Assembly (NCBI GenBank): GCA_035403545.1
Contig: DAONFJ010000005.1
Coordinates: 3,629-67,628 of the forward strand
Origin: Spirochaetota bacterium
GTDB lineage: Bacteria; Spirochaetota; UBA4802; UBA5550
DNA: 64,000 bases
Direction of reading: 5' to 3'
Shown: piece after piece, positions 473 through 50,509 of the stretch
Layout of the letters: each line of letters begins with the position of its first letter
Numbering within the stretch: the stretch's first letter is position 1
Notes under the pieces: generated by a model
What the model was told of the DNA's origin: nothing
Seen by the model: only the letters and a program-made list of their open reading frames with translations
Database searches by the model: none
Position numbers and translations under genes: made by a program

Positions 473-1157
473 AATCAGCATAATGATCGAACTCCAGCAT
501 TACTGGGATAATGTAACGAAATCTGAATCCGAAATTGATAGATGCAGAAAATCCATAAAAACATGGGAGAGCAGATTAAATGATATTTCAGTAAAAGTCT
601 CAGGTACAGAAGCAAAAGTAAAAACATTAAAAATAAATTTAAGAAAGAACGAACTTGATCTTGAAGAAATAGATTCAAAAATAAAAAAAGTGGAACAAAG
701 AAAAAATCAATTAAAATCAGAAAGAGAAATAGAAGCACAGAATAATGAGCTGATTATTCTAAATGATTCCAAAGATAAACTTGAAGGAGTTATTTTAGAA
801 TTCATGGATAACCTGGAAAAAGCGGAGCAGAATTTAAATGACTATAAAAATGAATTTACTGAGTCAGATAAACAGATAAAAACAGATATAGAAGGGCTTA
901 ATATTAAAATTAAAAATTATCAGGCGGAATCTGATCTTTTTAAAAATAAATTTAATGATCTGCTGCCGTCTCTTTCACCTGTAAATAAATCAAGATTTTC
1001 TAAACTGATAAGTTCCAAAGATGGAGTGGCAATTGCAAAATTAAATGGCGAAACCTGCACCCGCTGCAATTTCCAGGTACCGGCAGCCATAGCAGTATCC
1101 GCGGCAGGCCAAAAAAGTATTGAGGTTTGTACAAACTGCGGAAGATTTATTTACTGA
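462..1157 (+). CDS. Coiled-coil protein with C-terminal C4 zinc ribbon (COG1579 / HP0958-like)
   Basis: Long K/E/L-rich heptad-like body ending in CTRC-x21-CTNC. It sits immediately after NIF3, which is the conserved NIF3-COG1579 pairing. Confidence 0.65.
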   Translation: MKNEISIMIELQHYWDNVTKSESEIDRCRKSIKTWESRLNDISVKVSGTEAKVKTLKINLRKNELDLEEIDSKIKKVEQRKNQLKSEREIEAQNNELIILNDSKDKLEGVILEFMDNLEKAEQNLNDYKNEFTESDKQIKTDIEGLNIKIKNYQAESDLFKNKFNDLLPSLSPVNKSRFSKLISSKDGVAIAKLNGETCTRCNFQVPAAIAVSAAGQKSIEVCTNCGRFIY

Positions 1158-1182: not shown

Positions 1183-1869
1183 ATGCTTTTAAGCATTGAC
1201 CGTGTATTACAATTGATTTCGGAAGGCAAAAATATTGATAAGATTGCCGAACTTGCTGAATGTAACTCGTCTGATGTCGTTTCATTGATTGAAGAAGCCC
1301 GTGAGCTCCTGTCCAAACATGAGAAGACTTTTTCAAAAAGAAAAGTAATTATCAAAAAAAAGAAACCTGAAAGTAGCGAGAATACTTCAAGTTCGGATCA
1401 GACTTATATTAAAGAAATATTAAACGGTGCAGAGCTTGCAGCTATTCCTGTTAACACGCCGCTTACAATGAATGTAGGAGGTGTAGCATCCGGAAATCCC
1501 GGCCATTCAGGGATAGGGATTATTATTTTTGATCAGGAAGATAGACAGGTCGGCAAAGTTTCGGATTACATAGGAAAAAGAAACAGTTCAGGCGCAGAGC
1601 ATGTCGTATTTCTGAGGGCCCTTAAACTTGCAGTTTATTTCCAGGTAAGTGAGTTGAAAATAAGAACAGACTCGGAAGCAATAGTAAGGCAATTAGCTGC
1701 AGATTTTAAAACTAAAGATTCAGATGTATTGAAATTTTTATCCGATGCAAATACCCTTATAAAAAAAATAAAGAAATTTAAAGTAGAACATATTGTAAAA
1801 AGTTCGAACGATAAAGCCATTTATCTTGCAACTAAAGCTTCTGAAAAGGTTCAGGACAAAAATAGATAA
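1183..1869 (+). CDS. HTH-domain protein fused to an RNase H-like (RVT_3 type) domain, probably catalytically degenerate
   Basis: The N-terminus (RVLQLISEGKNIDKIAELAECNSSDVVSLI) looks like a small HTH. The C-terminal half has SGNPGHSGIGIII, GAEH..FLRAL and IRTDSEAIVRQL, the RNase HI pattern. The first catalytic Asp position reads Gly (VGGVASGNPG). Confidence 0.55.
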   Translation: MLLSIDRVLQLISEGKNIDKIAELAECNSSDVVSLIEEARELLSKHEKTFSKRKVIIKKKKPESSENTSSSDQTYIKEILNGAELAAIPVNTPLTMNVGGVASGNPGHSGIGIIIFDQEDRQVGKVSDYIGKRNSSGAEHVVFLRALKLAVYFQVSELKIRTDSEAIVRQLAADFKTKDSDVLKFLSDANTLIKKIKKFKVEHIVKSSNDKAIYLATKASEKVQDKNR

Positions 1870-11476: not shown

Positions 11477-13648
11477 ATGGATAATAACATGAATGAAATA
11501 TTTATTATAATTCTTAAAGTATTATTTTTATTGTTGATATTAATAGGTTCAGGATTCGCAGGAAAATATATTGCACTGAAGAACGACAAAAGTGTAAGCC
11601 TGTTTTTTATAATAGGTTTGCTGACTGGTCCAATCGGACTGTTATTGATTTTTCTCCTTATAAAGTTACCTGAAAAATTTATCGGGCCTTTCATCACAGT
11701 AGCAGTTTTTATACTGATTGTTGCACTATATACTCAGACAACAATGCTTTCAGGACTGGAATGGGGTTCTATAGATTTCAGATTCTATGTCCGTGATCCT
11801 TCTCAAAAGACTGTAAAGCTTGAGGAAGGAGTCAAAATGAACAGGATAAATCCAAGAGCAAGGAAAGATCTTGTTATAATCGGTATAGATGAAAGTACGA
11901 TTCGTGAGTTTTCTGATAAAGGAATTCAGTGGCCATTCTCATGGGATATCCATGCAAAATTTACAAACTTTGTCGCCTCAGGAAAACCTCTCGCAATTCT
12001 CTACGATATTATGTTTCTTGATCATAAACCGGGAGAAGCTGTCCTTGCAAAAGCAATTAAAGATTCTAATGTTTCATTCCTCGATTATCCATTTGAAGCA
12101 GACGAAGTGGATGTTCCATACCAGGATCAGAACGAGAGATTGGAACTTCTCGAAAAAGTCAAATTTCCCGTAGATTCAAAAGATTATAGTGAACCTCTTG
12201 TTTCAGATGTCACTCCGCCTACCCCTGAACTTATAAAATCCGCTAAAGGCATTGGATTTGCAAATGTATTTCCCGGAAGAGATAGAATAAACAGAACTAT
12301 CCCGCTTATAATAAAATACAAAGGAGCTTATTATCCGAACATCGACCTTTCGATTGTAATGCATTACTTTGGCATAGGCCCTGAAAATGTTGAGATTAAA
12401 ATCGGGAAGTACATTAAACTAAAAAATCTGCCAAAAGAAAAAATGGCTAAACCGAATAACGAACGAGAAATTGTAATACCAATAGATGACTATGGATTTA
12501 TGGATGTTAATTTTATTGGAGGTTCCGGAAGCTTTCAGCATTACCCTTATTACCTGTTTGCAAATGATGGTACAATGGAAGGAAACAATTCATTAAAAGA
12601 TAAAATACTTCTCGTTGCAGCTTATGCGGTAACCGGAGTAGCGACAGATGAAAAAAAATCTCCATATGGAGCAACATTCGGGATTGAACACCATGCCAAT
12701 GCTTTAAATACTATTTTAAATCAGGATTTTCTCTACAAGCTTTCTGATTTGCAGAATATAGCAATTATGCTTGTTATTGCTTTACTAATCGGTTTGTTTG
12801 TACCGCGTATGTCAATAGGATCATCACTGGTGACGACAGTTCTTTTTATAATTTTATATTCAGTAGCCTCATATATGTTATTCGATTATTTCAGTGTAAT
12901 TACGGCTTTTGCTACTCCGCTGATTCAGACTGCACTTACATATTCAATGCTGGTGACATACAGAGTTGTTAACGAACAGAAAGAAAAAAAATATATAAGG
13001 CAGACATTCTCAAAATTTGTTTCCAAATCTGTTGTAGATGAACTGCTCAAAGATCCGAGCAAGATTAAGCTTGGTGGAGATAAAAAGATTCTAACTGTTC
13101 TTTTTTCTGATATACGGGGATTTACGTCTATCTCGGAAAGGCTTACACCTGAAGAGCTTGTTGAGCATCTTAATATCTATCTCCAGTCTATGACTGATAT
13201 AATATTAAAATATTACGGTACCCTTGATAAATATATCGGAGACGCGGTAATGGCCTTCTGGGGTGCTCCGATTGAGATGGATGATCATGCGCTAAAAGCA
13301 TGTAAAGCTTCACTCGAAATGATGGAAGCTCTAAAAGTAATGAACAAAAAATGGGAAGTTGAGAATAAACCTATTCTCGAAATCGGTATCGGTATCAATA
13401 CAGGAGACATGATTGTCGGTAATATGGGTTCTGCAGCGAGGATGGACTATACGCTGATGGGTGATAACGTCAACCTTGGTTCAAGGCTTGAGGGAACCAA
13501 CAAGTTTTACAAAACAGGAATTATCATCAGTGAGTTTACTTACCAATATGTAAAAGATGATGTGGTAGTCCGGGAACTTGATTTAATACGCGTAAAAGGA
13601 AAAGCATTACCAGTCAAAATTTTTGAACTAATGGCAATTAAAGATTAA
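11477..13648 (+). CDS. Membrane-bound CHASE2-sensor class III adenylate cyclase
   Basis: N-terminal TM segments. CHASE2-like block (IIGIDESTI..WPFSWDIHAKF..ILYDIMFLD). More TMs follow, then the cyclase core LTVLFSDIRGFTS, KYIGDAVMAFWG and GINTGDMIVGNMGS. The Lys/Asp specificity pair suggests ATP. Confidence 0.85.
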   Translation: MDNNMNEIFIIILKVLFLLLILIGSGFAGKYIALKNDKSVSLFFIIGLLTGPIGLLLIFLLIKLPEKFIGPFITVAVFILIVALYTQTTMLSGLEWGSIDFRFYVRDPSQKTVKLEEGVKMNRINPRARKDLVIIGIDESTIREFSDKGIQWPFSWDIHAKFTNFVASGKPLAILYDIMFLDHKPGEAVLAKAIKDSNVSFLDYPFEADEVDVPYQDQNERLELLEKVKFPVDSKDYSEPLVSDVTPPTPELIKSAKGIGFANVFPGRDRINRTIPLIIKYKGAYYPNIDLSIVMHYFGIGPENVEIKIGKYIKLKNLPKEKMAKPNNEREIVIPIDDYGFMDVNFIGGSGSFQHYPYYLFANDGTMEGNNSLKDKILLVAAYAVTGVATDEKKSPYGATFGIEHHANALNTILNQDFLYKLSDLQNIAIMLVIALLIGLFVPRMSIGSSLVTTVLFIILYSVASYMLFDYFSVITAFATPLIQTALTYSMLVTYRVVNEQKEKKYIRQTFSKFVSKSVVDELLKDPSKIKLGGDKKILTVLFSDIRGFTSISERLTPEELVEHLNIYLQSMTDIILKYYGTLDKYIGDAVMAFWGAPIEMDDHALKACKASLEMMEALKVMNKKWEVENKPILEIGIGINTGDMIVGNMGSAARMDYTLMGDNVNLGSRLEGTNKFYKTGIIISEFTYQYVKDDVVVRELDLIRVKGKALPVKIFELMAIKD

Positions 13649-15888
13649 AAGCATAAAGATTCTGTTTTATCTTTAGACTTAACTTTAACGCAGGGTGTTT
13701 CTAAAATTCCGTTAATTTCCAGAGGCACCCTGTCAGTTAAGTTTTCCTTCCTGATATTCAAATTAAGCGGTACTTTCAATCCTTCTTCATCAGTAAATGT
13801 TCCATATGCATTGAAACTGAGATCGGCTGAATCAAAATTGAAATTTTTAATATAGAAATTATTTGCAGATTGTGTAAAGCTGATAGAAAACTTTGAAAAA
13901 TCAATTCTTCTGTTAAATATATCCTTATAATTATTTAAATCCATAAACCCGGCAAGTTTGTTCTGAACTGGAGTATTGTTTAAATAACCATCTTTTATTT
14001 CAATATTCAGACCGGCTTTACCATTCTCTACAACCTGCCCTATCCTGTATGCACTTGTTTCAAAATTCATATCAAGAGACAGAATCCCGCCGAAAGAATA
14101 GCTCAGTCCTGAATCATGGGAAATACTGTTAAGATCAAGCCCTTTCGCATCTGCATTAAATTTAAAGAAAGGATATTCCTGATGTAGAGATGAATACAGA
14201 TTGAAACTATAAATACCATTATATCCGTCAAGGGTAAAGCTATTTGTTTTTACAACACCCTTTATAAGAGAGAGATCTATATAAAAATTATTAAGATACG
14301 AATTACCTGCTATGATAAGTTTTTCAGCTTTTAGTTTTAGAGCAATATCATTATTATTGATAAAAATTCCTTCCGGTTCTTTCAGAAAGTTTCTCTGTTC
14401 GTCAAAATTCTGAAACATATCCACATAAGCTAAATTATAAACTTTTTTTATAGCACTGTTCATTAATTCTTTTAGAAGATCAAGTTCAAGCTTTTTTGAA
14501 AATATCTCGATACTACTTGATGATTTGATCGGGTTCCAGCTTGATATTAAACTGTTATATGACACATTAAAATCCGAATTACCGGATTTTAAGTCTGTTT
14601 TTATTATGATTTTATTGTTATCTGCAGATAGTAAAACATTTCCATCTTTTATATCTGTCAGGTCATGAGCATTTTTATTATTAGGCAGTATATTGAATTT
14701 ATTCAGTTTAAAATTCAAATTTAAATTTTCAGATTTATTATCTTTCAGATTGTATCTGCATATTCCATTGAATGAAAGATCACCGTTATAACTGCAGTTT
14801 TTAATAAGATAAACAGACTCTGATAAATCTTCCAGGTCAATTTTATTGGAATTCAGCTGGATTGAAACAAAGTCATCTTTCACATAATCTAAAGATGCGG
14901 ATAATTCAATTGTTCCATCATCCACTTCCAGTTTTTCGATTGTTAATTTATCCATTTTTTTTGAAAAATTAAAACGGAACTCGGTATCTATATCCTCATT
15001 TTTTAAAACCGGATAGGGTGTATCTTTCTGGTAATAGAATAAGCTGAGGGATGAAATATCAGTATCCCCTTTACATTTAACAGTATCGTTATCGTTGATA
15101 TAATTCAGGTTTCCGGAAAAAGTTCCAGTGATTAAAGTCCGCAGAGAAAATTCATCATTTAATAAATTGTTAAGGTGAGTCAGGTCAAAATTTTCCAGTT
15201 TAATATCTGCTTCGGAATAATTTCTGTCCAGGAAGATTTTACCAATAGCCCTATAGCTGCTCTTAAACCAGCTTTTCCGTAATTTATCATGAATATTTCC
15301 GTATGATCTGTACGCGATTGAATTATTTTTGTATTTTATTTTTAAATCAAAATCATAAATATCAATTCCTGATTTTGAATTTCTGAATGTTTCTCTGAAA
15401 TATAAACTTGAATCTGTTAGTTCAAATCTGAAGCCGTCAGTAATAAATTTTCTAATCCTTTCTTTATCAATTCCGCCAATCAGATCATCGATAAATGTTT
15501 CGTAGTAAGTTTTACCATAGTTCTTTATTATCGTTACTTCAGGTTCAACCATATAAACACCGGCAATAGTAACTTTTTTTCTAATCAGATCGAACAGATA
15601 AGTGTCGATGGTAATTTCCTGGCACTTTATCAGGTTTATGTTGTCATTGAAGTCGTTGGTGTTTGAAAGATAGAAATTTTGAAGTATTATATCACCGTTA
15701 TACTTGAAATATAGTGAATCAAATTTGATAGCTTTACCGAATATATCTTTAAAACTATCTTTTAAAGAGTTGGAAAGTTCGTTACCTGGATATAATATAT
15801 TAATAGAGATTTTCAGTATGCTGATGCTTAACAGGACAACTGAGAAAATTATACCAAGTGAAATAATAATTTTTTTATTCTGATTCAT
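13645..15888 (-). CDS. Large N-terminally anchored beta-rich envelope protein (possibly AsmA/TamB-like)
   Basis: Single N-terminal TM, then a 700-aa N/S/D/K-rich region with alternating hydrophobic pattern and a C-terminal Phe. No firm motif was recognised. Confidence 0.3.
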   Translation of the reverse strand: MNQNKKIIISLGIIFSVVLLSISILKISINILYPGNELSNSLKDSFKDIFGKAIKFDSLYFKYNGDIILQNFYLSNTNDFNDNINLIKCQEITIDTYLFDLIRKKVTIAGVYMVEPEVTIIKNYGKTYYETFIDDLIGGIDKERIRKFITDGFRFELTDSSLYFRETFRNSKSGIDIYDFDLKIKYKNNSIAYRSYGNIHDKLRKSWFKSSYRAIGKIFLDRNYSEADIKLENFDLTHLNNLLNDEFSLRTLITGTFSGNLNYINDNDTVKCKGDTDISSLSLFYYQKDTPYPVLKNEDIDTEFRFNFSKKMDKLTIEKLEVDDGTIELSASLDYVKDDFVSIQLNSNKIDLEDLSESVYLIKNCSYNGDLSFNGICRYNLKDNKSENLNLNFKLNKFNILPNNKNAHDLTDIKDGNVLLSADNNKIIIKTDLKSGNSDFNVSYNSLISSWNPIKSSSSIEIFSKKLELDLLKELMNSAIKKVYNLAYVDMFQNFDEQRNFLKEPEGIFINNNDIALKLKAEKLIIAGNSYLNNFYIDLSLIKGVVKTNSFTLDGYNGIYSFNLYSSLHQEYPFFKFNADAKGLDLNSISHDSGLSYSFGGILSLDMNFETSAYRIGQVVENGKAGLNIEIKDGYLNNTPVQNKLAGFMDLNNYKDIFNRRIDFSKFSISFTQSANNFYIKNFNFDSADLSFNAYGTFTDEEGLKVPLNLNIRKENLTDRVPLEINGILETPCVKVKSKDKTESLCF

Positions 15889-27721: not shown

Positions 27722-28594
27722 ATGAAAATAAATAAAGAACTGATAAAATCGATAATTAGTGATTTGCCTTCAAAAATAAAGCAGGTTACCGGAACAATTT
27801 ATAATTTACCGCATTCAGGTAAATATCTTTTACTCTCGCTAGTTTTATTAATTTTATTTTTAATAATGTCATTCCCGTATGATTTTCTAATTAAAAAAAA
27901 GATTTACGGACTCGAAGGTAAATCATTCCGATCTATTGAATTTTCAGGATTCGATTTCAGTATTTTCAGTGAAACTTATATTGATAATTTAATTATTGTT
28001 TTGAATAACAGCAATGAGATAACCTGTAAAAACGCTATAGTTAATTTAACTCTTAATCCGGTCACTTTATTCATCAATAACAAATTAAAGTCAGATTTTC
28101 AGTTCGATTCCCTGAAATACAGCGGGAAAGATTTTGAGTTAATCTTTAATGTTAACGGAAATATGAATCTGACACTCGATAAACAAACCAGTATACCCAA
28201 AGACGGGCCTGTGAAAATAATCATAAGTGATTCAAATATTAAACTTAATAATATCAGTATACCTGGGCCTATGGGCCCGCTCCCGCTGAAAATAGAATCC
28301 GTTAATATTCAGAGCGGTAATATTGACTCTGTTATAACAAATGGAATCCTGAAATTTAACTCTTTTAAATTAACAGGGAGCGATATTTCCTGTGATATAA
28401 CCGGTTCCATTGAATTAACAAATAATTCCAGAATCGATTTAATCGTAAACATCGATTCGGAGTCGGCTGTACTTGATCAGTATAAAGACGTGCTGGCCTC
28501 TTTTATAAAAAATAATATCCTTTCACTAAGAATTAAGGGAACTCTGTCAAAACCCGAATTGGCAATAAACAGTGCAGAAAAAAATGAAAATTGA
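27722..28594 (+). CDS. gspN: GspN-like bitopic protein
   Basis: Single TM and a beta-rich periplasmic region. It is the last gene of the cluster. Assignment is by position only. Confidence 0.35.
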   Translation: MKINKELIKSIISDLPSKIKQVTGTIYNLPHSGKYLLLSLVLLILFLIMSFPYDFLIKKKIYGLEGKSFRSIEFSGFDFSIFSETYIDNLIIVLNNSNEITCKNAIVNLTLNPVTLFINNKLKSDFQFDSLKYSGKDFELIFNVNGNMNLTLDKQTSIPKDGPVKIIISDSNIKLNNISIPGPMGPLPLKIESVNIQSGNIDSVITNGILKFNSFKLTGSDISCDITGSIELTNNSRIDLIVNIDSESAVLDQYKDVLASFIKNNILSLRIKGTLSKPELAINSAEKNEN

Positions 28595-30317
28595 AATGGC
28601 AAAACATTCCGGCTTTTGTATGGGAGTCAGAAAAGCAATTCTTAGAATAGTTGATGAACTAAATTCATCTGAAGAAAAAATTTATATGTACGGCCCTCTG
28701 ATTCACAATCCACAGACAATTGAAGTTCTTAAAAACCGTGGACTCATAACAATTAATTCTCTTGATGATTTGAATAACAGGCAGATTGCAATCAGAACTC
28801 ATGGTATTCCGATTGACGAGAACAAAAGGATAAGGGCAAACGCGTTACGTACAATCAATTTAACCTGTTCAAGAGTTGCCAGAGTACAATCTATCATAAA
28901 GAAATATTCAGGTGCCGGTTATTATACAATAATAATCGGAGATAAAGACCACGCTGAAGTAACCGGATTAAAAAGTTATGCCTGTGCAGGTGTACATGTA
29001 GTATCTAATGTGAATGACATAAAAGGAATTGCTGAAGCCGAAAAATATATTATTGTATCCCAAACTACACATGAACGAAATCAGTTTGACCAGCTTGTAT
29101 CAGAAATATCAAAAAAATTTAAAAACGTATATGTAATAGATACTATATGTGACTCAACAAGGTTAAGGCAGGACGATGTAAAAAACGGAATTATAAAAGG
29201 AATAGACACCCTTGTAGTTGTTGGAGGGAAAAATTCAGCTAATACATCACGTCTTTTAAAAATTGGTATCGATAATGGAATAAAATCATTTCATATAGAA
29301 ACGGATGCTGAATTAAAAAAAGAGGATTTTAAAGATAGTAAATATGTTCTTGTTACGGCAGGTGCCTCTACTCCCGGCTGGATAATTAATAATGTTTTGG
29401 AAAGACTTTATATAATAAAAAATGAAAGCAGTAATTTTCTGGTAAAATCTGTAAAACATTATATTGAATTATTGATAAGAAGCAATATTGTTTCTTCTGC
29501 GGCATCAATGTTTATGGTCTTATTAGCACAACTTTACGCCGGAATCTCATTTGATATTCAGTATGGCATAATTGCTGCACTTTATATATTTGTAATGTAT
29601 TCAGTTAATAACTATCTCGACCGGAGCTTCCTTATAAAAAGCAATTCATATAAATATAAAATTTATGATAAATATGGATCTTATCTGCTGTTTTCATCGA
29701 TCATTTCATTTATCGCGTCTTTATATATTGCAATGAGTATCTCGTTGTCCCTGACACTTTTATTATTAGTTCCATACATTTTCGGATTAATCTATTCTAC
29801 TCCGGTTATTAAAAATATTGTAAAAGGTATTAATTTTAACCTTCTTAAAAAAATTTATAACACAAAGATTGTCACCGGTTTAGGCTGGCTTGTTGCAGTA
29901 ATAATAATTCCGTATCACGGCAATAGTGTATCATGGCAAATATATCTTTCAGCAGGTTTGTTCTTCTTTATGTTTGTTTTCATCAGGCATCTGATAATTG
30001 ATTTTGTTGCATTTCAGGGAGATCTGATACTCGGGCGGGATACGCTGCCGACATGGCTTGGTGTAAAAAATGTAATAACACTATCTTATGTGACTATACT
30101 GCTAAGTTCTTTAGTCTTTATAATTGTATCAATTACATCAGGCATGTCTCTCTTCTTATTGCTTCTCATATGCATTATTTACTATGTTTTACTGCTGAAA
30201 AAAATACAAAAAACAGATTATCTTATTTCGCTGAGATATGAATTTATAGTCGACTTAAATTATCTGATTATGGCAATTCTTTATTTTGTGATCAGATTTT
30301 CACCAGCTTTACTTTAG
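28572..30317 (+). CDS. ispH: Fusion: 4-hydroxy-3-methylbut-2-enyl diphosphate reductase (IspH) + polytopic UbiA-like prenyltransferase domain
   Basis: aa 1-285 carry the IspH motifs GFCMGV, LTCSRV, DKDHAEV, TICDSTRLRQ and GGKNSANTS. aa ~300-581 carry 8-9 hydrophobic helices with NNYLDR and D-x6-DLILGRDTLPTWLG. The true start may be the ATG at 28584 or 28596. Confidence 0.8.
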   Translation: MQKKMKIEMAKHSGFCMGVRKAILRIVDELNSSEEKIYMYGPLIHNPQTIEVLKNRGLITINSLDDLNNRQIAIRTHGIPIDENKRIRANALRTINLTCSRVARVQSIIKKYSGAGYYTIIIGDKDHAEVTGLKSYACAGVHVVSNVNDIKGIAEAEKYIIVSQTTHERNQFDQLVSEISKKFKNVYVIDTICDSTRLRQDDVKNGIIKGIDTLVVVGGKNSANTSRLLKIGIDNGIKSFHIETDAELKKEDFKDSKYVLVTAGASTPGWIINNVLERLYIIKNESSNFLVKSVKHYIELLIRSNIVSSAASMFMVLLAQLYAGISFDIQYGIIAALYIFVMYSVNNYLDRSFLIKSNSYKYKIYDKYGSYLLFSSIISFIASLYIAMSISLSLTLLLLVPYIFGLIYSTPVIKNIVKGINFNLLKKIYNTKIVTGLGWLVAVIIIPYHGNSVSWQIYLSAGLFFFMFVFIRHLIIDFVAFQGDLILGRDTLPTWLGVKNVITLSYVTILLSSLVFIIVSITSGMSLFLLLLICIIYYVLLLKKIQKTDYLISLRYEFIVDLNYLIMAILYFVIRFSPALL

Positions 30318-31218
30318 GGCCTGTAAAAATTTTTAACTCATTTTCAGCAGTATAGATATCTCCGTCCATAGTGTACTCAAAAATTCCTTTCTGTTTTATT
30401 AAAATAGATTTTCCAAATACATTTAAATATTTCGGAGATTTAATTCTTTTACCGGTTCTAATTTTATTCAGGTATCTTAAAATTCCTCTCGGGTTCATTC
30501 CCAGAACAATAACCTGAAATGTTCCGTCAGATTGAACTGCTTCAATTAAAGGTGAGAATCCCATGCCTATATGCTCTACTGTTCCGGCAAGGATTCCCGA
30601 TACAGGATTAATCAGAACCTTTTTCCCGTCAATAAAAACGGCCTGCTCGGTTAACCTGAAAATTTCACCGTCTTTAATGTTAAGAATCCCCTCCTTCGCG
30701 CCCATGAATGCAACCTGAAGGTTCCTGTAAAGACCTTTTTCCTTACCTGAATATGCCTTATTCAGAAAATTAGTAACAAGTCCTGTACCGAAGAGAAAAC
30801 AATATTTATCCAATATTTTTATTGTATAACGATCTTCTGTTTTTATAATTTTTTCTTCCCCGATTCGTTTCAATAATCGTTTTAACAATGCCGGACCTCG
30901 ACCTTTTAATTTTACAGATCTGGCAATATTATCCATTGTTCCTTCTTTAAGAATAAGTACTGGAGGCACAGGCTCCGGATGAAAAGCATTTATCAGTTCA
31001 CTTAAAACCAGGTGAATAGTACCATCTCCTCCGCCTATGCAGATGTAATCAAGCTTATTGGATCTATATTTTTTTGCCGTTTCTTTCAGTTGTTCAATAT
31101 TTTCCGGAGTGCTGATTATGACGTTTTCTGAATTGTGATCCATATATGTACCTATAGAAGCTCTGCCGGTTCTGAACTTTTTTGCATTGGGATTTATAAT
31201 TACACCTATTTTTTTCAT
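30292..31218 (-). CDS. Diacylglycerol-kinase-fold lipid kinase (YegS/BmrU family)
   Basis: KIGVIINPNAKK...ICIGGGDGTIHLV...GTMDNIAR. The 3' end overlaps the ispH-fusion 3' end by 26 nt. Confidence 0.7.
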   Translation of the reverse strand: MKKIGVIINPNAKKFRTGRASIGTYMDHNSENVIISTPENIEQLKETAKKYRSNKLDYICIGGGDGTIHLVLSELINAFHPEPVPPVLILKEGTMDNIARSVKLKGRGPALLKRLLKRIGEEKIIKTEDRYTIKILDKYCFLFGTGLVTNFLNKAYSGKEKGLYRNLQVAFMGAKEGILNIKDGEIFRLTEQAVFIDGKKVLINPVSGILAGTVEHIGMGFSPLIEAVQSDGTFQVIVLGMNPRGILRYLNKIRTGKRIKSPKYLNVFGKSILIKQKGIFEYTMDGDIYTAENELKIFTGPKVKLVKI

Positions 31219-31520: not shown

Positions 31521-32810
31521 ATGATTAATGATATTCTAAATAAGTATTTGAACAATGAAAAATCAGGGGAAGTAACCGGTTATTCCATGGACGGTATTAC
31601 CAGACTTCTGAACCATCTTCGTAATCCGCATAAAAATTTCAAATCATTGCATATTGCCGGTACAAACGGAAAAGGTTCGACGGCCTTTATGCTTTCAACA
31701 ATTCTCGAAAAATCAGGATACAAAACAGGGCTTTATACTTCACCTCATCTTATTACAATTAATGAACGTATAAAGATAAATTCCTGTGACATAGACGATT
31801 CCCGCCTGTACAAATATATAAGTGATATTGACTGTATTGTCGGCAATGATAAAACTTTATCGCCAACATATTTTGATATATTGACTGCCGCTGCTTTTGC
31901 ATATTTCAGTGATGAATCAGTTGATATTGCTGTAATAGAAACAGGCCTTGGCGGAAGGCTGGATTCCACAAATGTGGTCACACCTGAAATATCCATAATT
32001 ACTGATATTTCAATGGATCATATTCACATACTCGGTGATAAAATTTCAGACATAACAAAAGAAAAGTGCGGTATTATCAAACCGGCTATCCCTGTAATTA
32101 CCTCTAATACTGATCCCGAGATTATTAGTATAATAGAACAATACTCCAGTATAAATGAGTCAAAGCTATATTTGTATAATCGTGATTTTTTTACACAAAA
32201 TATACGAAGAGATAATAATCATTTTGTATTTGATTATTCAGCGGATGATACTATTCTTCCCGATATCAGTCTTTCACTTTTTCCTGTGCATCAGGTGAAA
32301 AACAGTTCCGTTGTAATAACTGCATTATCATGTTTAAAAACGAATGGTTTTCCGGCTATTTTGTATTCTGCAATATACAGAGAACTTAAAAAAATACAAG
32401 TCCCGGGAAGATTTCAAATACTGCGAGCTGATCCATTAATTATTTATGATCCTGCACATAATTATGATTCACTGAAAAACCTGCTAAATGGCCTTGAAAC
32501 ATACTACTCTGACAAAAAGAAAGTCTTTATATTTTCGATGATGAAAGATAAGGCAGATGCTAAAACACTCGAGTTGCTGACAGATCTGGATGTTGTATAT
32601 TTTCTTCTGGATGATGAGCGGGCCTATAAACCTGATAATAAGTTTAAATTAATTATCTCTGACGAAAATATTATAGTTGATATTTTGCAAAAAGTAGATG
32701 ATATAAATAGTATGATTATATTCACAGGGACATTCAGAATTTATAATCATGCAGTTAGAATTACAAAAAATTTTCAAAAACATGATTTGAATATTCGGGA
32801 TAAAGTATGA
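31521..32810 (+). CDS. folC: Folylpolyglutamate synthase / dihydrofolate synthase
   Basis: HIAGTNGKGST P-loop, SPHL, ETGLGGRLDSTNV, and a Mur-ligase C-terminal domain. Confidence 0.88.
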   Translation: MINDILNKYLNNEKSGEVTGYSMDGITRLLNHLRNPHKNFKSLHIAGTNGKGSTAFMLSTILEKSGYKTGLYTSPHLITINERIKINSCDIDDSRLYKYISDIDCIVGNDKTLSPTYFDILTAAAFAYFSDESVDIAVIETGLGGRLDSTNVVTPEISIITDISMDHIHILGDKISDITKEKCGIIKPAIPVITSNTDPEIISIIEQYSSINESKLYLYNRDFFTQNIRRDNNHFVFDYSADDTILPDISLSLFPVHQVKNSSVVITALSCLKTNGFPAILYSAIYRELKKIQVPGRFQILRADPLIIYDPAHNYDSLKNLLNGLETYYSDKKKVFIFSMMKDKADAKTLELLTDLDVVYFLLDDERAYKPDNKFKLIISDENIIVDILQKVDDINSMIIFTGTFRIYNHAVRITKNFQKHDLNIRDKV

Positions 32811-33733
32811 CAACAAAAGATGATCTGCTGGCTGAACTTATAGAAACGAAATATTTAATTCAGAATAATAATTTTAATCCGGAAATAGTAAAGAATACCT
32901 TACAAAAAATAGATTCAGTCCCATTCAATTCGTCTTTAAATAATTTAACTGATAAAAGTAATATGATTAAAAGTTTTCTGATTACTTTTAATGCAAACAA
33001 TTTTTCAGACCTTACATTATTATTCAATACGTCTTCAGATGAAGTGCGGGTAATTGAGTATGCAGGGAGTGAAATAATTTTAAATGAGTTTAATAACCTG
33101 ATCAAAACTGATTTAAAATTTTATAAAGATATTGATAAAATAAAAGTAAAGGAAAACAGTTTCCGTATTTTTTTTGAGTCAATGGAGAATGATAAGGGTA
33201 TATATACTGTTTTAACGATCACAGAGTCAGTTTTATTTAAACCGAGTAAGTTCCATATGCTTTGTGACATTATTCTGGATGTTATAAGATCGACTAATAT
33301 GTCGCACGGTTCAGTGTTTAATGATTTATTTGAAGATACTGCAATTGAAATTAATAGTTATATTTCTGCTAATGATATCACTGATTCTGAATTCTATATT
33401 TTTAAATTTGAAAATATTTACGATTTTTTTCTAAAAATGGGTCTGGAGATAATAATTGAACTTTCCGAAACAATAAAGAATAAATTAAGGGAAGTTTTTG
33501 GTGAAAGGTCAGCTGTTTTCAGGTTCTCTCTTTCAGAGTATATTGTAATATCGTCTGAAAATTTTTCTACGGATATCCGATCATCAGATTTAAATAACAG
33601 CAGCATGCTTAATTTTAATTATAAAGGTATAGTATTAAAACACCGCTGTATCAGAATACCTTATAAAAATAATCAATCGATCTATGATATTTTTGAAAAT
33701 ATTTATTCGATTAACGTGTATAATGGAAAATAA
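32807..33733 (+). CDS. Hypothetical protein; C-terminal half may be a fully degenerate GGDEF-like fold
   Basis: Start overlaps the folC stop (ATGA). FKFENIYDFFLKMG...AVFRFSLSEYIVIS resembles the DxDxFKxxND...RxGGDEF layout, but all catalytic residues are replaced. Confidence 0.35.
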   Translation: MTTKDDLLAELIETKYLIQNNNFNPEIVKNTLQKIDSVPFNSSLNNLTDKSNMIKSFLITFNANNFSDLTLLFNTSSDEVRVIEYAGSEIILNEFNNLIKTDLKFYKDIDKIKVKENSFRIFFESMENDKGIYTVLTITESVLFKPSKFHMLCDIILDVIRSTNMSHGSVFNDLFEDTAIEINSYISANDITDSEFYIFKFENIYDFFLKMGLEIIIELSETIKNKLREVFGERSAVFRFSLSEYIVISSENFSTDIRSSDLNNSSMLNFNYKGIVLKHRCIRIPYKNNQSIYDIFENIYSINVYNGK

Positions 33734-33754: not shown

Positions 33755-36103
33755 TCATTCGCCGATGTTAACATTTTTTTTCCTCGTAATTAAATCAGCA
33801 AATTTTTTTATCAGATCGTGTTTTAATCCAACATAATAATCATCTTTTTTAATTATAACTGAATGTTTTTGGAGAAATTTTAAACCTTCATTGAAAATAT
33901 CCTTTTCGGATTTGTTAATTATAATTCTATTATCCGTTACATATTTATTAATTAATTTTTTCAACCTTGAAGTCTTTATTATAAAATTATTTTCTAAGAT
34001 AATTCCGGAAATTATATAATGAGGCAGTATAATATCATCAAGCACCCATATCTTCTGAATCAGCTCGGCTATTGAAATCTGCAAGTGAGATTGTTTTGTG
34101 TATTCGGATAAAAAAACCGGCGATGAAAAATTGATCGCAACCTGTTCAGTAAATAATTCTTTAATCTCCGATTCGTCCAATCTGTTTCTATAAGTAATTT
34201 CAGCGGGTATTAGAACTACTTCTGTTGTTTCTTTAAACATCACGCTGTTCAGCATATTAAAAAATTTGTCATTTGGAACTGCCTGAGCAGACTCTGTCCC
34301 CTGCAGTTCAGGAAAATATAAAAAAGGAACTCCATGGCTTGCAAGTATAGAAACGTACTCCATAATAGATTCAAGATACAGTTTGTTATTTAATTTTGAT
34401 TGGTGTATTATAAATCCGCCGCACTTCCGTGTAAGATATTTAATAAATTTATTTTTCAGTAATTCCGATGGAACAAAAAATCTTGGTACAGGAAGAATAT
34501 ATTGGCTGATCGCATAAGAGTAATAAATGCAGTCATTTACATTTTTAAATTTAGCAGTATAAATCGTATTAGCACTATTTCTCAAACTATGTAAATTATG
34601 AAAATCGCCGGTGATAGTGATACTGTTTCTATTCCCGATCAGTTTTTTCCAGTAATATTTGAAAGTAATAAAATTAACAAATAGTCTGTAAAAAAATGGA
34701 TTATAGTAATCCATGGTTTCTTTTAAATATAAATTTATTATTTTTTTTAAAGTTTTTTCCGAGTTATTCGATACAAATTCAGACAGCAGTTTCAATTCAT
34801 TTTTTAATAAAACAGTATGCTTAATTTCATTTTCCTGAAGCATGCATTTTAGATTGGAAATGATTTCATTTTCTGATTCACCTGTTACGGTATTGTTTGT
34901 TTTATGTTTCTCAATTAATTGCTTCAATATCAGTTTTTTAAATGCTTTCCCTCTAAGTGTTTCCAGCCCTTTCTTTTTATCTTTTACATGGATTTTAGTA
35001 TTATTATAAATCTCTTCAAAATTATCCGGATTTTTTATCGTTTCAATTAACAGGGACGGTTCTTTTTTATTTAACAGTACTTCATAAAGAGATCTGTAAA
35101 CAGGAATTGAAATGGAATTCCTGTCGGCGAGTTCAATTAAAGGTTCAATCGCATAAGCACCCTCAGCTAGATAATGAAGCTTTTTACTCATCTTCTCGAG
35201 AACGTACTCGGGTTTAAACCGCAGATAAATTTTATCAGTCCAGGAGAGAATCGTACCTTTTTCAACTATCTGCTTTGCAATATCTTTTCCAAATCTTCTG
35301 TTTCTGCTATGTTCACTCAATGCTGTTGCTACAAGGTCACCGGTTCCTGAAATATCAATTATAGTTTCAGTTCGCGCTCCAAGAAAGTTTCCCAGACGTA
35401 TCATTTCCTTTAAGGATTCAGCAATGAGTGCTCCTTCAAGATTATCACCGCATTGAGGCAGCTTGGTTATCATCCCGGCAGCTATCGCAGCCGGATTTTT
35501 TAATGTACCGCCAAGATCAACTCCGATTATATCATCAGTTTCTCTGCATTGAAGATAGTAGCAATTCAGAAGTTCTGAAAAAAATTTTCTGTCTCCCGCA
35601 TGATGTCCTGCTACTGAAACTGTAGTATGGAAATATTTCACAACTTCTTCAGCATGGCTCGGACCGGATATCCCTACTACCCTGTTGCTATACCTGGGAA
35701 AAATTTTTGATATTGCCTGTGATATGGTCAATATTTCATTGTTGATTTTACAGAAACCTTTTGTCAGGTATGCAAGTGGTATATCTTCTTTCAGCAATCT
35801 TGCTATTTTTTGTATTGTATCCGGTATTATTTTTGACGGGGTTGCAATTATGATTCCTTCAGTGTTGAGCAGTGATTCCCTCAAGTGGGTTGTAGCTTTT
35901 ATATTGTAGGGGAGTTTGATTCCTGGAAGAAATTCACTATTCAGATTTTTTGAGTTTATAGAGTTCGCGGTTGATTTTTCATATGACCACATTTTTACAA
36001 TTGTACCGGGATTGTTCTCTGCGATAACTTTTCCAATCGCAGTTCCCCATGAGCCGGCACCAATAATGGTTATTTGTTTATTCTTGTTGTATAATTCTGG
36101 CAT
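33755..36103 (-). CDS. gpsA: Fusion: NAD(P)H-dependent glycerol-3-phosphate dehydrogenase (GpsA) + PlsB-like acyltransferase-fold domain
   Basis: aa 10-345 read ITIIGAGSWGTA, GPSHAEEV, DLGGTLKNPAAIAAG, SRNRRFG, AEG. aa ~500-650 align to PlsB blocks (FIIHQ / NKLY / FPELQGTES / VVLIPAEITY). Confidence 0.75.
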   Translation of the reverse strand: MPELYNKNKQITIIGAGSWGTAIGKVIAENNPGTIVKMWSYEKSTANSINSKNLNSEFLPGIKLPYNIKATTHLRESLLNTEGIIIATPSKIIPDTIQKIARLLKEDIPLAYLTKGFCKINNEILTISQAISKIFPRYSNRVVGISGPSHAEEVVKYFHTTVSVAGHHAGDRKFFSELLNCYYLQCRETDDIIGVDLGGTLKNPAAIAAGMITKLPQCGDNLEGALIAESLKEMIRLGNFLGARTETIIDISGTGDLVATALSEHSRNRRFGKDIAKQIVEKGTILSWTDKIYLRFKPEYVLEKMSKKLHYLAEGAYAIEPLIELADRNSISIPVYRSLYEVLLNKKEPSLLIETIKNPDNFEEIYNNTKIHVKDKKKGLETLRGKAFKKLILKQLIEKHKTNNTVTGESENEIISNLKCMLQENEIKHTVLLKNELKLLSEFVSNNSEKTLKKIINLYLKETMDYYNPFFYRLFVNFITFKYYWKKLIGNRNSITITGDFHNLHSLRNSANTIYTAKFKNVNDCIYYSYAISQYILPVPRFFVPSELLKNKFIKYLTRKCGGFIIHQSKLNNKLYLESIMEYVSILASHGVPFLYFPELQGTESAQAVPNDKFFNMLNSVMFKETTEVVLIPAEITYRNRLDESEIKELFTEQVAINFSSPVFLSEYTKQSHLQISIAELIQKIWVLDDIILPHYIISGIILENNFIIKTSRLKKLINKYVTDNRIIINKSEKDIFNEGLKFLQKHSVIIKKDDYYVGLKHDLIKKFADLITRKKNVNIGE

Positions 36104-41226: not shown

Positions 41227-41668
41227 ATTCTATAGTCATGCTGTAGGAGGATGTACCTGATTTTGAGGATTTCAGTTTTACTTTCACAATTCTGTCTTTA
41301 TCGATATTTATATAAATAAAATCCGGTTTCGGCTGATCAATATTGTTCATCTTAACATACCTTCCAAGGCTTTCATTCAATACCCACTTCTCAACTTTTA
41401 TTAAATGACGGTTGGATGTAAGCTGGGTATCGAAATATTTTTCCTGAGACTCCAGGCCGGTTGTTGTTCTTCCAGATTCAATCTTGTCAACATAAATCAT
41501 GTAATAACATCTTCTATCATTTTCAGGATTATCTATATCTGAATCATAAATTGAAATGAAAAAATTATTTTCACCCTCAATCTTCCTGTTTGTTTCTTTT
41601 TCAGTGGTTTTGCACCCGAAGATGCTGATACAGATAATTAAACATAGAATTTTAAAATTCAGATGCAT
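41225..41668 (-). CDS. Small lipoprotein, unknown function
   Basis: Lipobox ISIFGC at aa 14-19. The start overlaps the upstream gene's stop by 1 nt. Confidence 0.5.
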   Translation of the reverse strand: MHLNFKILCLIICISIFGCKTTEKETNRKIEGENNFFISIYDSDIDNPENDRRCYYMIYVDKIESGRTTTGLESQEKYFDTQLTSNRHLIKVEKWVLNESLGRYVKMNNIDQPKPDFIYINIDKDRIVKVKLKSSKSGTSSYSMTIE

Positions 41669-43227
41669 TATAAATCCTCGATAGTAATAATATATGGAAA
41701 TTCAAAATTTGCGACTATTGGTTCAACTATAATATAACCTTTCTTATCAAAAATTTCATTAAATGATATCTCTTCATCTGATTCTATCTCTTTTGATTTA
41801 ATTATAAATCCCAGCTGATCAGTAGTTGAAATTTTAATCTTACCATCTTTGACGCCTCTTACAGAAATCTTAACCTTTTGTCTTCCTTCATATTTTATAA
41901 GATAATAGTCGATATCGTTTTTATATGTTATAAAACCGGTTATTGAATTGTTAATGAGATTGGCTGTGTTTTTTGAGTTATTAGGTTCAATTTCAAGAAC
42001 CTCATTTGATTCAAACTTTTCAATAGCAAGCGTGTATTGTGATTCCGAAGCTGCAAGTGAAGAAGCTGAGACAGAAAAATATACAGAATTTTTAATCATG
42101 AAATATGGAATCGTTTCACTTCCTCCCGGACCAGAATTGTTTATTTCGAATAACTTATTTCTGTTATTATCATATACCGTCATAATAATATCCAGTCCCT
42201 CAACTCCCGAACATCCAGCTTTATAATATTTGTTTTTGAACGGCGGTATAAACTGGTAGAAATCCTGATCTCCTGGACTATTGATTTTACCGGTTATTAT
42301 GTTATTTGAAATGATATTAGCTTTTTCGAAACTGTTATTTAATTCCAGTTCGGAATTCTGGTTGTAAGTTTTGTAATCCAGTTGAAGTTCATATGGAGTG
42401 TCGTGATTAAAGAGGAAATTTTTCGAACTCACCTGTATATAATAAATTCCAGATTCCTTTATTCCGAAATCTGTAATTATTTCTCCTTCGCCTGTTCCGG
42501 CGCTGTCAACGTTTATGATCTCTTCCATCGCGCTATTTAAGACTGATACGACGGAATCGACTCCGGTGACTCCGGATAATTTTAAATCAATTAACACCGG
42601 GGTATTGTCAGAAATATTAATATTAAATTTATACCAGTCGATCTCCTTCATCCTGCTAATCGGGTCGTTGTTCAGACTATTTTGTGCCGGGGAGAAATAT
42701 CCCATTGTCTGAGATTTATCTCCGATCTCAGTTGCCGAATATGGATTATCATTAGGTTCTTTTTCTTCATTCAGATATGATCGTGATGTGATTAATAATT
42801 TATAAGGAGTTTCAATGTTTCCTTTTTTAATATCCCTGCTGCCGTGGGTAATTGTAAAAATATACTGGCCGGATTGAACATAAAGGTTTGCAAATGTTTC
42901 AGATGAAGATTTTCTGTTGTCATCAATTACTTTTATCAGTTGAGGTTTTGAATTTTCATTCTTAAATATATTTATAGAATGGTTTACACCCTTTATGCCG
43001 CTTAATTCTATTTTAAGAATCTGCTCTTCGTCAATATTCAGATAATAGTTATCTATATCATTTTCGCTCTCAAGATAACCTGTAATTTCTTTATTGATCT
43101 CAATTTGATTCGCATTTGAAAATGTATTATTCGGTTCTGTCTCGGAATTTTTAGATATTTTACACGACATTGTAAAAGATAAAAATATAATCAATAATAT
43201 TGACTTTTTATAGCCGTTCATATACAA
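41668..43227 (-). CDS. Lipoprotein with four PPC-like (pre-peptidase C-terminal type) repeats
   Basis: Lipobox FTMSC. There are four repeats, each opening with EPNN/EPND/ELNN...A..I...G, then a D.D.Y motif (DIDNYYL, IDWYKF, DQDFYQF, DIDYYLI). Confidence 0.6.
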   Translation of the reverse strand: MYMNGYKKSILLIIFLSFTMSCKISKNSETEPNNTFSNANQIEINKEITGYLESENDIDNYYLNIDEEQILKIELSGIKGVNHSINIFKNENSKPQLIKVIDDNRKSSSETFANLYVQSGQYIFTITHGSRDIKKGNIETPYKLLITSRSYLNEEKEPNDNPYSATEIGDKSQTMGYFSPAQNSLNNDPISRMKEIDWYKFNINISDNTPVLIDLKLSGVTGVDSVVSVLNSAMEEIINVDSAGTGEGEIITDFGIKESGIYYIQVSSKNFLFNHDTPYELQLDYKTYNQNSELELNNSFEKANIISNNIITGKINSPGDQDFYQFIPPFKNKYYKAGCSGVEGLDIIMTVYDNNRNKLFEINNSGPGGSETIPYFMIKNSVYFSVSASSLAASESQYTLAIEKFESNEVLEIEPNNSKNTANLINNSITGFITYKNDIDYYLIKYEGRQKVKISVRGVKDGKIKISTTDQLGFIIKSKEIESDEEISFNEIFDKKGYIIVEPIVANFEFPYIITIEDL

Positions 43228-49450: not shown

Positions 49451-50509
49451 CTACTTCCATTCAAAAATTTTCATAGTGTCATCATAAATATGATACGAAT
49501 AAATTGTACCGTTTTCATCGTGAATAATTTTTGAAAAGATATTGTTATTATCAAACTCGACTTTAATATTATTAATAATATTTCCGTCCATATTTACCAG
49601 CATGAATTTAATTTCTTTGCCTTCAATATTCCAGAAGTATAAAATTTTATCGTCAACTATATTGAAGAGAACATTCTTGGGATCCTGTATGCTTGTTATC
49701 TCTCTGACAATTTTATCTTTTTCAAGAGAAAATTCATAAATCTTTCTGTATTTAAATCTTACATCATGATAATACGCTACAGAAATTACTACTTCCTCTC
49801 CGCTCTTAAGTATTACAATGTTTTCGATTTTTCCGTTGTATACATCTTTATTTTCAGTTTCTTTAAAATCAAGTTTTGAAAAGTCTATATACTTTTCTCT
49901 TTTTTTCTTATTGAATCTGAACAGTTCCCATGTGTTGAAAGTTCTTGATAAAACAAACAGTCTGTCATCTGAATCTATGAAAAGTTTTTCTATGTAAAAA
50001 AATGGTATGTCCGGTGTACCGGTTTTACCCATCGTATACTGAAGCTCGCCGTTTTCATTGAATACCAGTATATATGACGGTGAAAAGTTTGCTCCCTCCT
50101 GGTCTCCGCCCAGTGAACTTTTTGTCAGTAAACGGTTCTGGACATAGATGTTGTTATCGTCATCCATTGTCATGCAGCCGATAATGTTGAAATTGAAATT
50201 TACTGTTTTATACTTATTTTTATCAATAGACTGCAGAGATCCTATAATCAGTTCCGGCACAGGGTTTCCGTCAAGTATCTGGAGCCTTTTAAGATTATTA
50301 TCCGCGGTAATTATTTTATTTTTATGTACTTCTATTCTGAATGAGAGATCATTCAGCGAGTATTCATCCCTCACTATCTGGATCTGTCCCGGGCCGTCAC
50401 CGCTTTTGATTGAGGCAACAGTTTTTGAAGTAAGTGAATTAACAAACCATTGAGTACAGCCGCTAATTGAAATAAGACTTATTAATGCCGGTATTATTAT
50501 TTTTTTCAT
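49451..50509 (-). CDS. Lipoprotein, unknown function
   Basis: Lipobox SISGC. Beta-rich, repetitive hydrophobic/Asp-Asn pattern. No family recognised. Confidence 0.45.
   Translation of the reverse strand: MKKIIIPALISLISISGCTQWFVNSLTSKTVASIKSGDGPGQIQIVRDEYSLNDLSFRIEVHKNKIITADNNLKRLQILDGNPVPELIIGSLQSIDKNKYKTVNFNFNIIGCMTMDDDNNIYVQNRLLTKSSLGGDQEGANFSPSYILVFNENGELQYTMGKTGTPDIPFFYIEKLFIDSDDRLFVLSRTFNTWELFRFNKKKREKYIDFSKLDFKETENKDVYNGKIENIVILKSGEEVVISVAYYHDVRFKYRKIYEFSLEKDKIVREITSIQDPKNVLFNIVDDKILYFWNIEGKEIKFMLVNMDGNIINNIKVEFDNNNIFSKIIHDENGTIYSYHIYDDTMKIFEWK

Follow-up and report, generated by a model that had tools for sequence, protein, structure and literature searches.

The stretch of DNA analysed here (the window) comprises 64,000 nucleotides from a Spirochaetota bacterium (assembly GCA_035403545.1, contig DAONFJ010000005.1, positions 3,629 to 67,628). 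It encodes a protein in which a glycerol-3-phosphate dehydrogenase (GpsA) is joined, in a single open reading frame (ORF), to a domain with the fold of the PlsB-type glycerol-3-phosphate acyltransferases (GPATs). Bacterial phospholipid synthesis starts with the formation of glycerol-3-phosphate (G3P) and its first acylation. In this protein we infer an active GpsA fused to a catalytically inert GPAT-fold module that is probably kept for a structural, membrane-localising or regulatory role, a reading to which we assign a probability of about 0.72. Our analysis establishes the architecture of the protein, the fold of its second half, the replacement of catalytic residues, the single origin of the fusion with a clade-level loss, and purifying selection on the altered domain. 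The original prediction, made from the sequence by eye, had described the 782 amino acid (aa) ORF as GpsA plus a PlsB-like part that is possibly catalytically dead. The layout is borne out by Pfam (PF01210 and PF07479), by profile searches and by structure comparison; the block register proposed against PlsB is reproduced by a profile alignment, and every string that was quoted lies at the residues and nucleotides given for it.

The amino-terminal half looks active, since both Pfam domains score 122-135 bits and all motif residues are present. The two domains lie well above their gathering thresholds (134.7 and 121.6 bits, with cutoffs of 23.1 and 25), and the NCBIfam GpsA subfamily model NF000940 is passed with 213.8 bits at a cutoff of 202. 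The motifs include GAGSWG (aa 15-20), K115 in TKG, K202 and N203 in LKN, D256 and T260 in GDLVAT, and R267 and N268 in SRNRRFG (aa 266-272); following established knowledge of the GPD1/GpsA family, we take these residues to be the catalytic and substrate sites. This half is therefore predicted to be a functional NAD(P)H-dependent G3P dehydrogenase that converts dihydroxyacetone phosphate to G3P. A 21-residue insertion follows the SRNRRFG motif and is visible in the Pfam match, which spans 163 residues for 141 model positions. In our alignment the insertion occurs in every fusion protein of the two clades described below and is absent from standalone GpsA.

The carboxy-terminal half is much more diverged from known families. 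As a single sequence it matches PF01553 with an E value of 8e-4 and 19.6 bits, which is below the gathering score (cutoff 23), and TIGR03703 with an E value of 7.5e-4. The PlsB equivalog models (TIGR03703 and NF003441) give 18-20.5 bits, where the cutoff is 618.5, and only model positions 267-422 match. Pfam and NCBIfam scans of the protein found neither PF19277 (GPAT_C) nor the PlsB N-terminal domain. A word-indexed search with this half as a single query returned just four homologues, and a search of the PDB gave an E value of 0.48. Searches with one sequence lacked the sensitivity required, which made profile and exhaustive searches necessary, and the profiles of relatives proved decisive. 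A five-sequence profile matches a solved bacterial GPAT (9vuq_E) across blocks I-III at an E value of 2.2e-5. An exhaustive HMMER profile search of 1.84 billion representatives yielded 709 matches at E<=1e-3, among them typical PlsB-type proteins of ~800 aa (E values of 1e-16 to 1e-8). Matches to PlsB-like proteins begin at profile positions 10-60, and residues ~450-490 of the linker are homologous with helices that lie before the catalytic core of PlsB (the alignment to E. coli PlsB starts at residue 226).

The structural results rest on an AlphaFold model of the domain by itself (aa 360-782), built from an alignment of 136 sequences, with a predicted local distance difference test (pLDDT) score of 91.4 and a predicted template modelling (pTM) score of 0.90. 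Foldseek searches with this model retrieve human GPAT1 (E value 1.2e-10, TM 0.60), the PlsC of T. maritima (3.9e-5) and squash GPAT (1e-3). The predicted structure thus confirms that the carboxy-terminal half has the GPAT/AGPAT alpha/beta acyltransferase fold.

Within this fold, most of the residues that define the family are replaced. We mapped them through a profile alignment with E. coli PlsB from NC_000913. In acyltransferase motif I (H-x4-D, or HX4D), F519 and N521 take the places of PlsB His306 and Ser308, and Asp311 is kept as D524. The motif II arginine, Arg354, is replaced by Q568, and the nearby Gly348 is kept as G562. The motif III sequence E-G-x-R-S, which together with the motif II arginine binds G3P, reads E599, L600, Q601, G602, T603: Glu385 is retained as E599, and Gly386, Arg388 and Ser389 are lost. 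Further along, Arg390 and Gly392 are replaced by E604 and A606. The proline of motif IV (Pro421, here P633) is present and is invariant in all groups. The loss of the block I histidine with retention of the aspartate, and the replacement of Gly-Arg-Ser in block III, had both been noted in the original prediction and are upheld; together with the loss of the block II arginine they support its suggestion of a dead domain. In addition, none of the findings that would have spoken against it was made, as no HX4D occurs anywhere in the 782 aa, the acyltransferase fold is recovered, and the uninterrupted fusion recurs in eight independent genome assemblies and in many metagenome contigs. In PlsB, an alanine in place of His306 or Asp311 leaves almost no activity (Heath and Rock 1998, cited in bioRxiv 10.1101/2023.04.30.538836). 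The domain thus appears to have lost nearly all of its catalytic residues, and canonical G3P acylation would no longer be possible. Since motifs I-III and the Pfam threshold fail and the PlsB equivalog cutoffs are far off, the protein should not be filed as an acyltransferase.

The window protein belongs to a family of GpsA-GPAT fusions in Spirochaetota, with which it shares the single ORF, the GpsA insertion and common ancestry. A scan of one genome per GTDB species for the fusion revealed eight loci, all of them in Spirochaetota or Leptospirales metagenome-assembled genomes. Seven of the eight carry a complete ORF with GpsA and acyltransferase-like parts (six of 780-783 aa, and L010 with 686 aa), and the eighth, L008, is cut by a contig end. 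The GpsA half is also found in 34 of the best 150 of the 709 exhaustive-search matches, where the acyltransferase match starts near residue 430-466. Counted as cluster representatives at 50% identity, about 35 relatives contain both halves. Gene order is kept in metagenomic relatives: L002 has dnaG, rpoD and the fusion, and in L001 the fusion is followed by a hypothetical gene, folC, a DAGK-like kinase and ispH.

The fusion proteins split into two sister clades, A and B. Clade A contains the window protein, L003-L010 and ~17 further cluster representatives from uncultured Spirochaetota, and the canonical acyltransferase motifs are degenerate in every member. Clade B includes the genus Leptospira and has canonical motifs throughout (HxSHLD, GAYAVDR and PEGTRSRTG), so that bifunctionality, in the sense of intact acyltransferase motifs, is seen in clade B and is lacking in all of clade A, the window protein included. 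The Leptospira protein P0019 (806 aa), for instance, stands for a cluster of 86 members; one record names the fusion 'bifunctional G3P dehydrogenase/G3P acyltransferase', and in L. interrogans Hardjo a gene listed as gspA (apparently gpsA) bears an acyltransferase product name (PMC13066512). A protein with both halves intact, P0028, is placed near the split between the clades, and a further homology search with a clade-B profile gave, among the matches listed, P0028-like proteins in every case. The fusion proteins are monophyletic with respect to standalone GpsA and to PlsB-type outgroups in the trees of both domains, which are neighbour-joining trees without bootstrap or other support values and whose topology is indicative only. 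This monophyly and the shared 21-aa insertion argue for a single origin of the fusion. In the simplest history, one fusion event would have given an ancestral enzyme with both activities, whose acyltransferase chemistry was then lost once, at the root of clade A.

The extent of this loss can be judged from column conservation. Thirteen positions (window residues 519, 521, 524, 568, 599, 600, 602, 603, 604, 606, 611, 613 and 643) are conserved at >=91% in clade B and at 100% in 14 PlsB-type proteins. The window protein keeps only D524 and E599 among them, and the deep members of clade A are near-random at these sites. Position 519 itself varies freely across clade A (F/Y/H/S/T/G/N/A/Q/V/E). Structural positions, namely Y515, P540, G562, Y576, Y583, G591 and P633, are conserved in all groups, and a further set (Y459, D465, R541, F542 and S666) is conserved in both fusion clades and not in PlsB. 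As far as can be read from the alignment, the catalytic loss took place at the level of the clade and affects 11 or more conserved functional positions, rather than a single residue in one gene.

Three candidates for a surviving or substitute histidine were considered. His590 lies at a helix end, seven residues before FPE, is H/N/Y in clade A and is not histidine in clade B, and was rejected as a replacement catalytic residue. The sequence HKNIND of L003 was rejected as a surviving HX4D; L003 is nested among sisters that bear tyrosine, so its histidine at position 519 is secondary. The HESPSD of the basal protein P0103, which has no block III, may be a true HX4D remnant.

Despite the loss of motifs, the domain is under purifying selection. 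The ratio of nonsynonymous to synonymous substitution rates (dN/dS) was computed on the least saturated pair (L003 and L005, dS 0.46-0.91). It is lowest in the carboxy-terminal tail (0.053) and in GpsA (0.057), followed by the acyltransferase core (0.077) and the linker (0.124). Thus, the inert domain in the subclade of the window protein is as tightly constrained as the GpsA attached to it. It shows 46 invariant columns among five sequences that are 38-55% identical to the window protein over the domain, and all eight members of this subclade have it at full length. Across clade A as a whole, identity to the window protein ranges from 52-88% in GpsA and from 18-82% in the acyltransferase core. 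Constraint looks looser elsewhere in the clade: Pfam does not detect the acyltransferase domain in P0016 and P0103, and two proteins from independent assemblies, L010 (686 aa) and P0004 (702 aa), both end ~90 residues early.

Since the fold, the structural residues and the fusion-specific residues are retained under strong purifying selection, the domain is probably kept for a non-catalytic job. The ancestor would have been a GpsA-GPAT enzyme with two working activities and a single origin in Spirochaetota, and the catalytic histidine, the phosphate-binding arginine of block II and the G-R-S-R of block III would have been lost at the base of clade A. The present protein would then make G3P without acylating it, and another route, such as PlsX/PlsY, presumably makes lysophosphatidate in clade A. 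The inert domain could act as a structural partner of the GpsA half, affecting its folding or oligomeric state; alternatively, it could hold GpsA against the cytoplasmic surface of the membrane, the site of G3P consumption, and it may still bind an acyl ligand that tunes GpsA. In PlsB, an element for membrane association is supplied by the catalytic domain, which shares its fold with PlsC, itself a membrane-associated enzyme (bioRxiv 10.1101/2023.04.30.538836).

Several observations weigh against this reading. The loss of acyltransferase activity is predicted from the residues, and the retention of D524, E599 and P633 leaves room for an unconventional mechanism. In the AlphaFold model, D524 is the first residue of a helix, and its retention could be explained by that position without a catalytic role. 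The window protein showed neither a transmembrane segment nor an amphipathic helix that stands out, so membrane targeting is proposed purely by analogy with PlsB and PlsC. A full-length AlphaFold model, built from a five-sequence alignment, is poor (pLDDT 49), and an interface of the dead domain with the GpsA insertion would be hypothetical. As for the genomic setting, Pfam scans of 30 other genes of the window found no plsX, plsY or plsC, and no second acyltransferase or GpsA gene occurs in the 223 kb searched (the window and L001-L010).

A sharper version of the preferred explanation, not exclusive with it, is that the dead domain is an allosteric sensor: acyl-CoA, acyl-ACP, lysophosphatidate or phosphatidate bound in the old substrate tunnel would gate GpsA and so couple G3P supply to acyl-chain supply. 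The fold and the hydrophobic core are kept under purifying selection, the catalytic domain of PlsB has separate palmitoyl-CoA and phosphatidate sites (bioRxiv 10.1101/2023.04.30.538836), and the domain is covalently joined to the producer of the co-substrate, which makes such coupling plausible. However, nearly all conserved polar positions that contact ligands are replaced, including the equivalents of K611 and G613, and several deep members of clade A shorten the domain. We consider a sensor of this kind possible, though on balance unlikely.

More tentative still is a broader proposal, which we regard as doubtful, that the inert domain was repurposed to control GpsA, either as a built-in sensor of lipids or acyl chains or as a dock at the membrane, and that the fusion family is a natural experiment in reciprocal domain death. 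If true, this would be a previously unknown way to match glycerol-phosphate supply to fatty-acid supply; clade A would have killed the acyltransferase half and some clade B proteins (P0026) the GpsA half, with P0028 keeping both. A mirror image of the window protein is seen in some clade B fusions (P0026, P0023, P0052 and P0034), in which intact acyltransferase motifs accompany an eroded GpsA half. P0026 has no PF01210 match, carries GASKDA in place of GxGxxG and has lost the TKG, LKN and SRNR residues, and P0023 and P0052 have GGEPLG and GGEQLS at the GxGxxG site.

Could the domain still be an acyltransferase, with a non-canonical mechanism assisted by Asp524 and Glu599, or with another substrate such as a non-phosphorylated acceptor? 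Its strong purifying selection, the three retained motif residues and the invariance of His590 in the subclade of the window protein would fit such an enzyme. The proposal is nevertheless improbable, because position 519 varies freely across the clade, the phosphate-binding arginines are all gone, and His590, besides being H/N/Y in clade A, lies at its helix end on the far side of a beta-strand from FPE. Moreover, the only well-conserved polar residues across the whole of clade A are D465, R541 and S666; they are equally conserved in clade B and so do not point to a new active site.

That the domain is a relic without function, in the course of being deleted, is in our view slightly less credible again. 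The acyltransferase half does diverge ~2x as fast as GpsA across clade A, and the domains that escape Pfam (P0016 and P0103) or end without the last ~90 aa (L010 and P0004) would fit such a relic. Against this stand a dN/dS of 0.05-0.08 in core and tail for an unsaturated pair, the 46 invariant columns, the full length of all eight subclade members and the very high confidence of the AlphaFold model. Finally, an assembly or frameshift artefact joining two genes, to which split versions might point (P0183 of 462 aa followed by an overlapping 343-aa acyltransferase-like ORF, and P0180 of 340 aa), is already refuted by the recurrence of the intact ORF, uninterrupted at 780-783 aa in six independent genome assemblies as well as in the window and with both halves present in about 35 cluster representatives, and the contigs with split versions come from error-prone assemblies, as their dnaG and rpoD are fragmented.

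For the same reason, the very short relatives (340 aa and 462 aa) were rejected as evidence of domain loss. In L013 (6001-8384) and L014 (6001-7288) the fusion gene is broken up into overlapping ORFs, and since these contigs also carry fragmented dnaG and rpoD, the splits look like assembly frameshift errors and not gene fission.

The positions of the individual features are collected in Table 1.

Table 1. Features of the GpsA-GPAT fusion gene in window coordinates
Feature	Residues (aa)	Nucleotides	Strand	Evidence or remarks
Whole fusion ORF: GpsA half, helical linker, PlsB-like pseudo-acyltransferase domain and winged-helix-like tail, in this order		33755..36103	minus	ATG start, 782 aa plus stop codon
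GpsA NAD(P)-binding domain	10-167	35603..36076	minus	PF01210, E 3.6e-39, 134.7 bits
GpsA substrate-binding C-terminal domain	191-353	35045..35533	minus	PF07479, E 3.7e-35, 121.6 bits
Insertion in GpsA C-domain (~21 aa), IVEKGTILSWTDKIYLRFKPE	~279-299	35207..35269	minus	Alignment with standalone GpsA
Helical linker	356-490	34634..35038	minus	Secondary structure of the model
GPAT/PlsB-fold alpha/beta core	491-665	34109..34633	minus	Profile, Foldseek, conservation, alignment
Block I remnant FKNVND	519-524	34532..34549	minus	F519 at PlsB His306, D524 at Asp311
Block II remnant CGGFIIHQ	561-568	34400..34423	minus	G562 kept; Q568 at PlsB Arg354
Stretch NKLYLESIMEYV	573-584		minus	Quoted in the original prediction
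Block III remnant YFPELQGTESAQ	596-607	34283..34318	minus	E599 kept; G-x-R-S-R-x-G sites are L600, G602, T603, E604, A606
Block IV VVLIPAEITY	629-638	34190..34219	minus	P633 kept (PlsB Pro421)
C-terminal tail	666-782	33758..34108	minus	Model and Foldseek

The final ~90 aa of the tail (33758-34030, aa ~692-782) form a small module of helices and strands in the model. Its Foldseek matches are winged-helix-like and comprise cullin WHB and CRP/FNR DNA-binding domains (probability 0.9-0.97 over 70-100 columns, E values of 0.4-0.7). The tail is conserved in clade B (G740, L744 and an aromatic residue at 768), does not align with PlsB-type proteins, and is missing in some deep clade A members (L010 and P0004). 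A scan of the fusion gene for promoters and terminators gave matches at chance level, and Rfam and tRNA scans of the window found nothing.

Among the neighbouring genes, the only other one nearby that is related to lipids is a DAGK_cat/YegS-like lipid kinase of 308 aa (30292-31218, minus strand), three genes from the fusion and in the same place in L001. On the plus strand, 28572-30317 encodes a 581-aa protein in which IspH/LytB (aa 7-279, E value 4e-78) is followed by a polytopic membrane domain of ~300 aa with weak, sub-threshold similarity to UbiA prenyltransferases (aa 335-545, E value 4e-4); a 570-aa LYTB gene occupies the same syntenic position in L001. This protein may be a fusion of isoprenoid synthesis and prenyltransfer. 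A 308-aa ORF without a Pfam match (32807-33733, plus strand) overlaps the folC stop codon and is convergent with the fusion gene, and hypothetical genes of similar size (306-316 aa) adjoin folC or the fusion in L001, L002 and L013. Three minus-strand ORFs of 747, 519 and 352 aa (13645-15888, 41668-43227 and 49451-50509) carry signal-like or lipoprotein-like sequences at the N terminus and match no Pfam family at E<=1e-5. A CHASE2-adenylate/guanylate cyclase of 723 aa (11477-13648, plus strand) and a 228-aa protein with an RVT_3 (RNase H-like) domain (1183-1869, plus strand) look ordinary.

The fusion alone is not new, since Leptospira has it with intact motifs and one record is annotated as bifunctional. 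What is new here is the clade-wide catalytic death, as predicted from the motifs, of the acyltransferase half under continued selection, and there are hints of a second novelty in the mirror-image decay of the GpsA half in some clade B proteins. Literature searches found no experimental paper on either form of the fusion (Leptospira or window type) and no described pseudoenzyme domain of the GPAT/AGPAT family fused to GpsA, and no curated NCBIfam model for the fusion exists. The GpsA-GPAT fusion is the form found in Leptospira, pathogens included, and yet has apparently never been studied. The clade of the window protein offers a natural, presumably catalytically dead version of the same protein that could serve as an inactive control. 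A comparison of live and dead forms could reveal whether the fusion serves channelling, localisation or regulation, and also what remains for the GPAT fold to do after the loss of catalysis. There is a practical side as well: an acyltransferase-type name on clade A proteins would predict an activity that they almost certainly lack, and would distort metabolic reconstructions of uncultured Spirochaetota. More generally, the case suggests that one half of a fused enzyme can die and still be kept.

The window protein can be compared with four known systems. With the general concept of pseudoenzyme domains beside an active partner it shares a conserved fold, lost catalytic residues and maintained purifying selection. 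Relative to standalone bacterial GpsA (NF000940/NF000942), its GpsA half has complete N- and C-terminal domains and all catalytic motifs, is ~33-37% identical to the GpsA of Bacillota, and differs by the 21-aa insertion after SRNRRFG and by a carboxy-terminal extension of 430 aa. With E. coli PlsB and the PlsB-type GPATs (TIGR03703, 9vuq and human GPAT1, 8e4y) it has in common the alpha/beta acyltransferase fold with its preceding helices, alignable blocks I-IV, and the equivalents of Asp311, Gly348, Glu385 and Pro421; unlike them, it is without the PlsB N-terminal domain and the GPAT_C region (PF19277), and the equivalents of His306, Arg354, Gly386, Arg388, Ser389 and Arg390 are replaced. The closest system is the Leptospira fusion, which has the same domain order, a similar length, the GpsA insertion, the linker and the carboxy-terminal tail, and is monophyletic with the window protein in both the GpsA and the acyltransferase tree. 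The two differ in both halves: Leptospira keeps HRSHLD, GAYAVDR and PEGTRSRTG with a PF01553 score of 69.8 bits, where the window protein has FKNVND, GGFIIHQ and PELQGTES with 19.6 bits, whereas the GpsA half is much more diverged in Leptospira, with a PF01210 score of 59 bits compared with 135 in the window protein.

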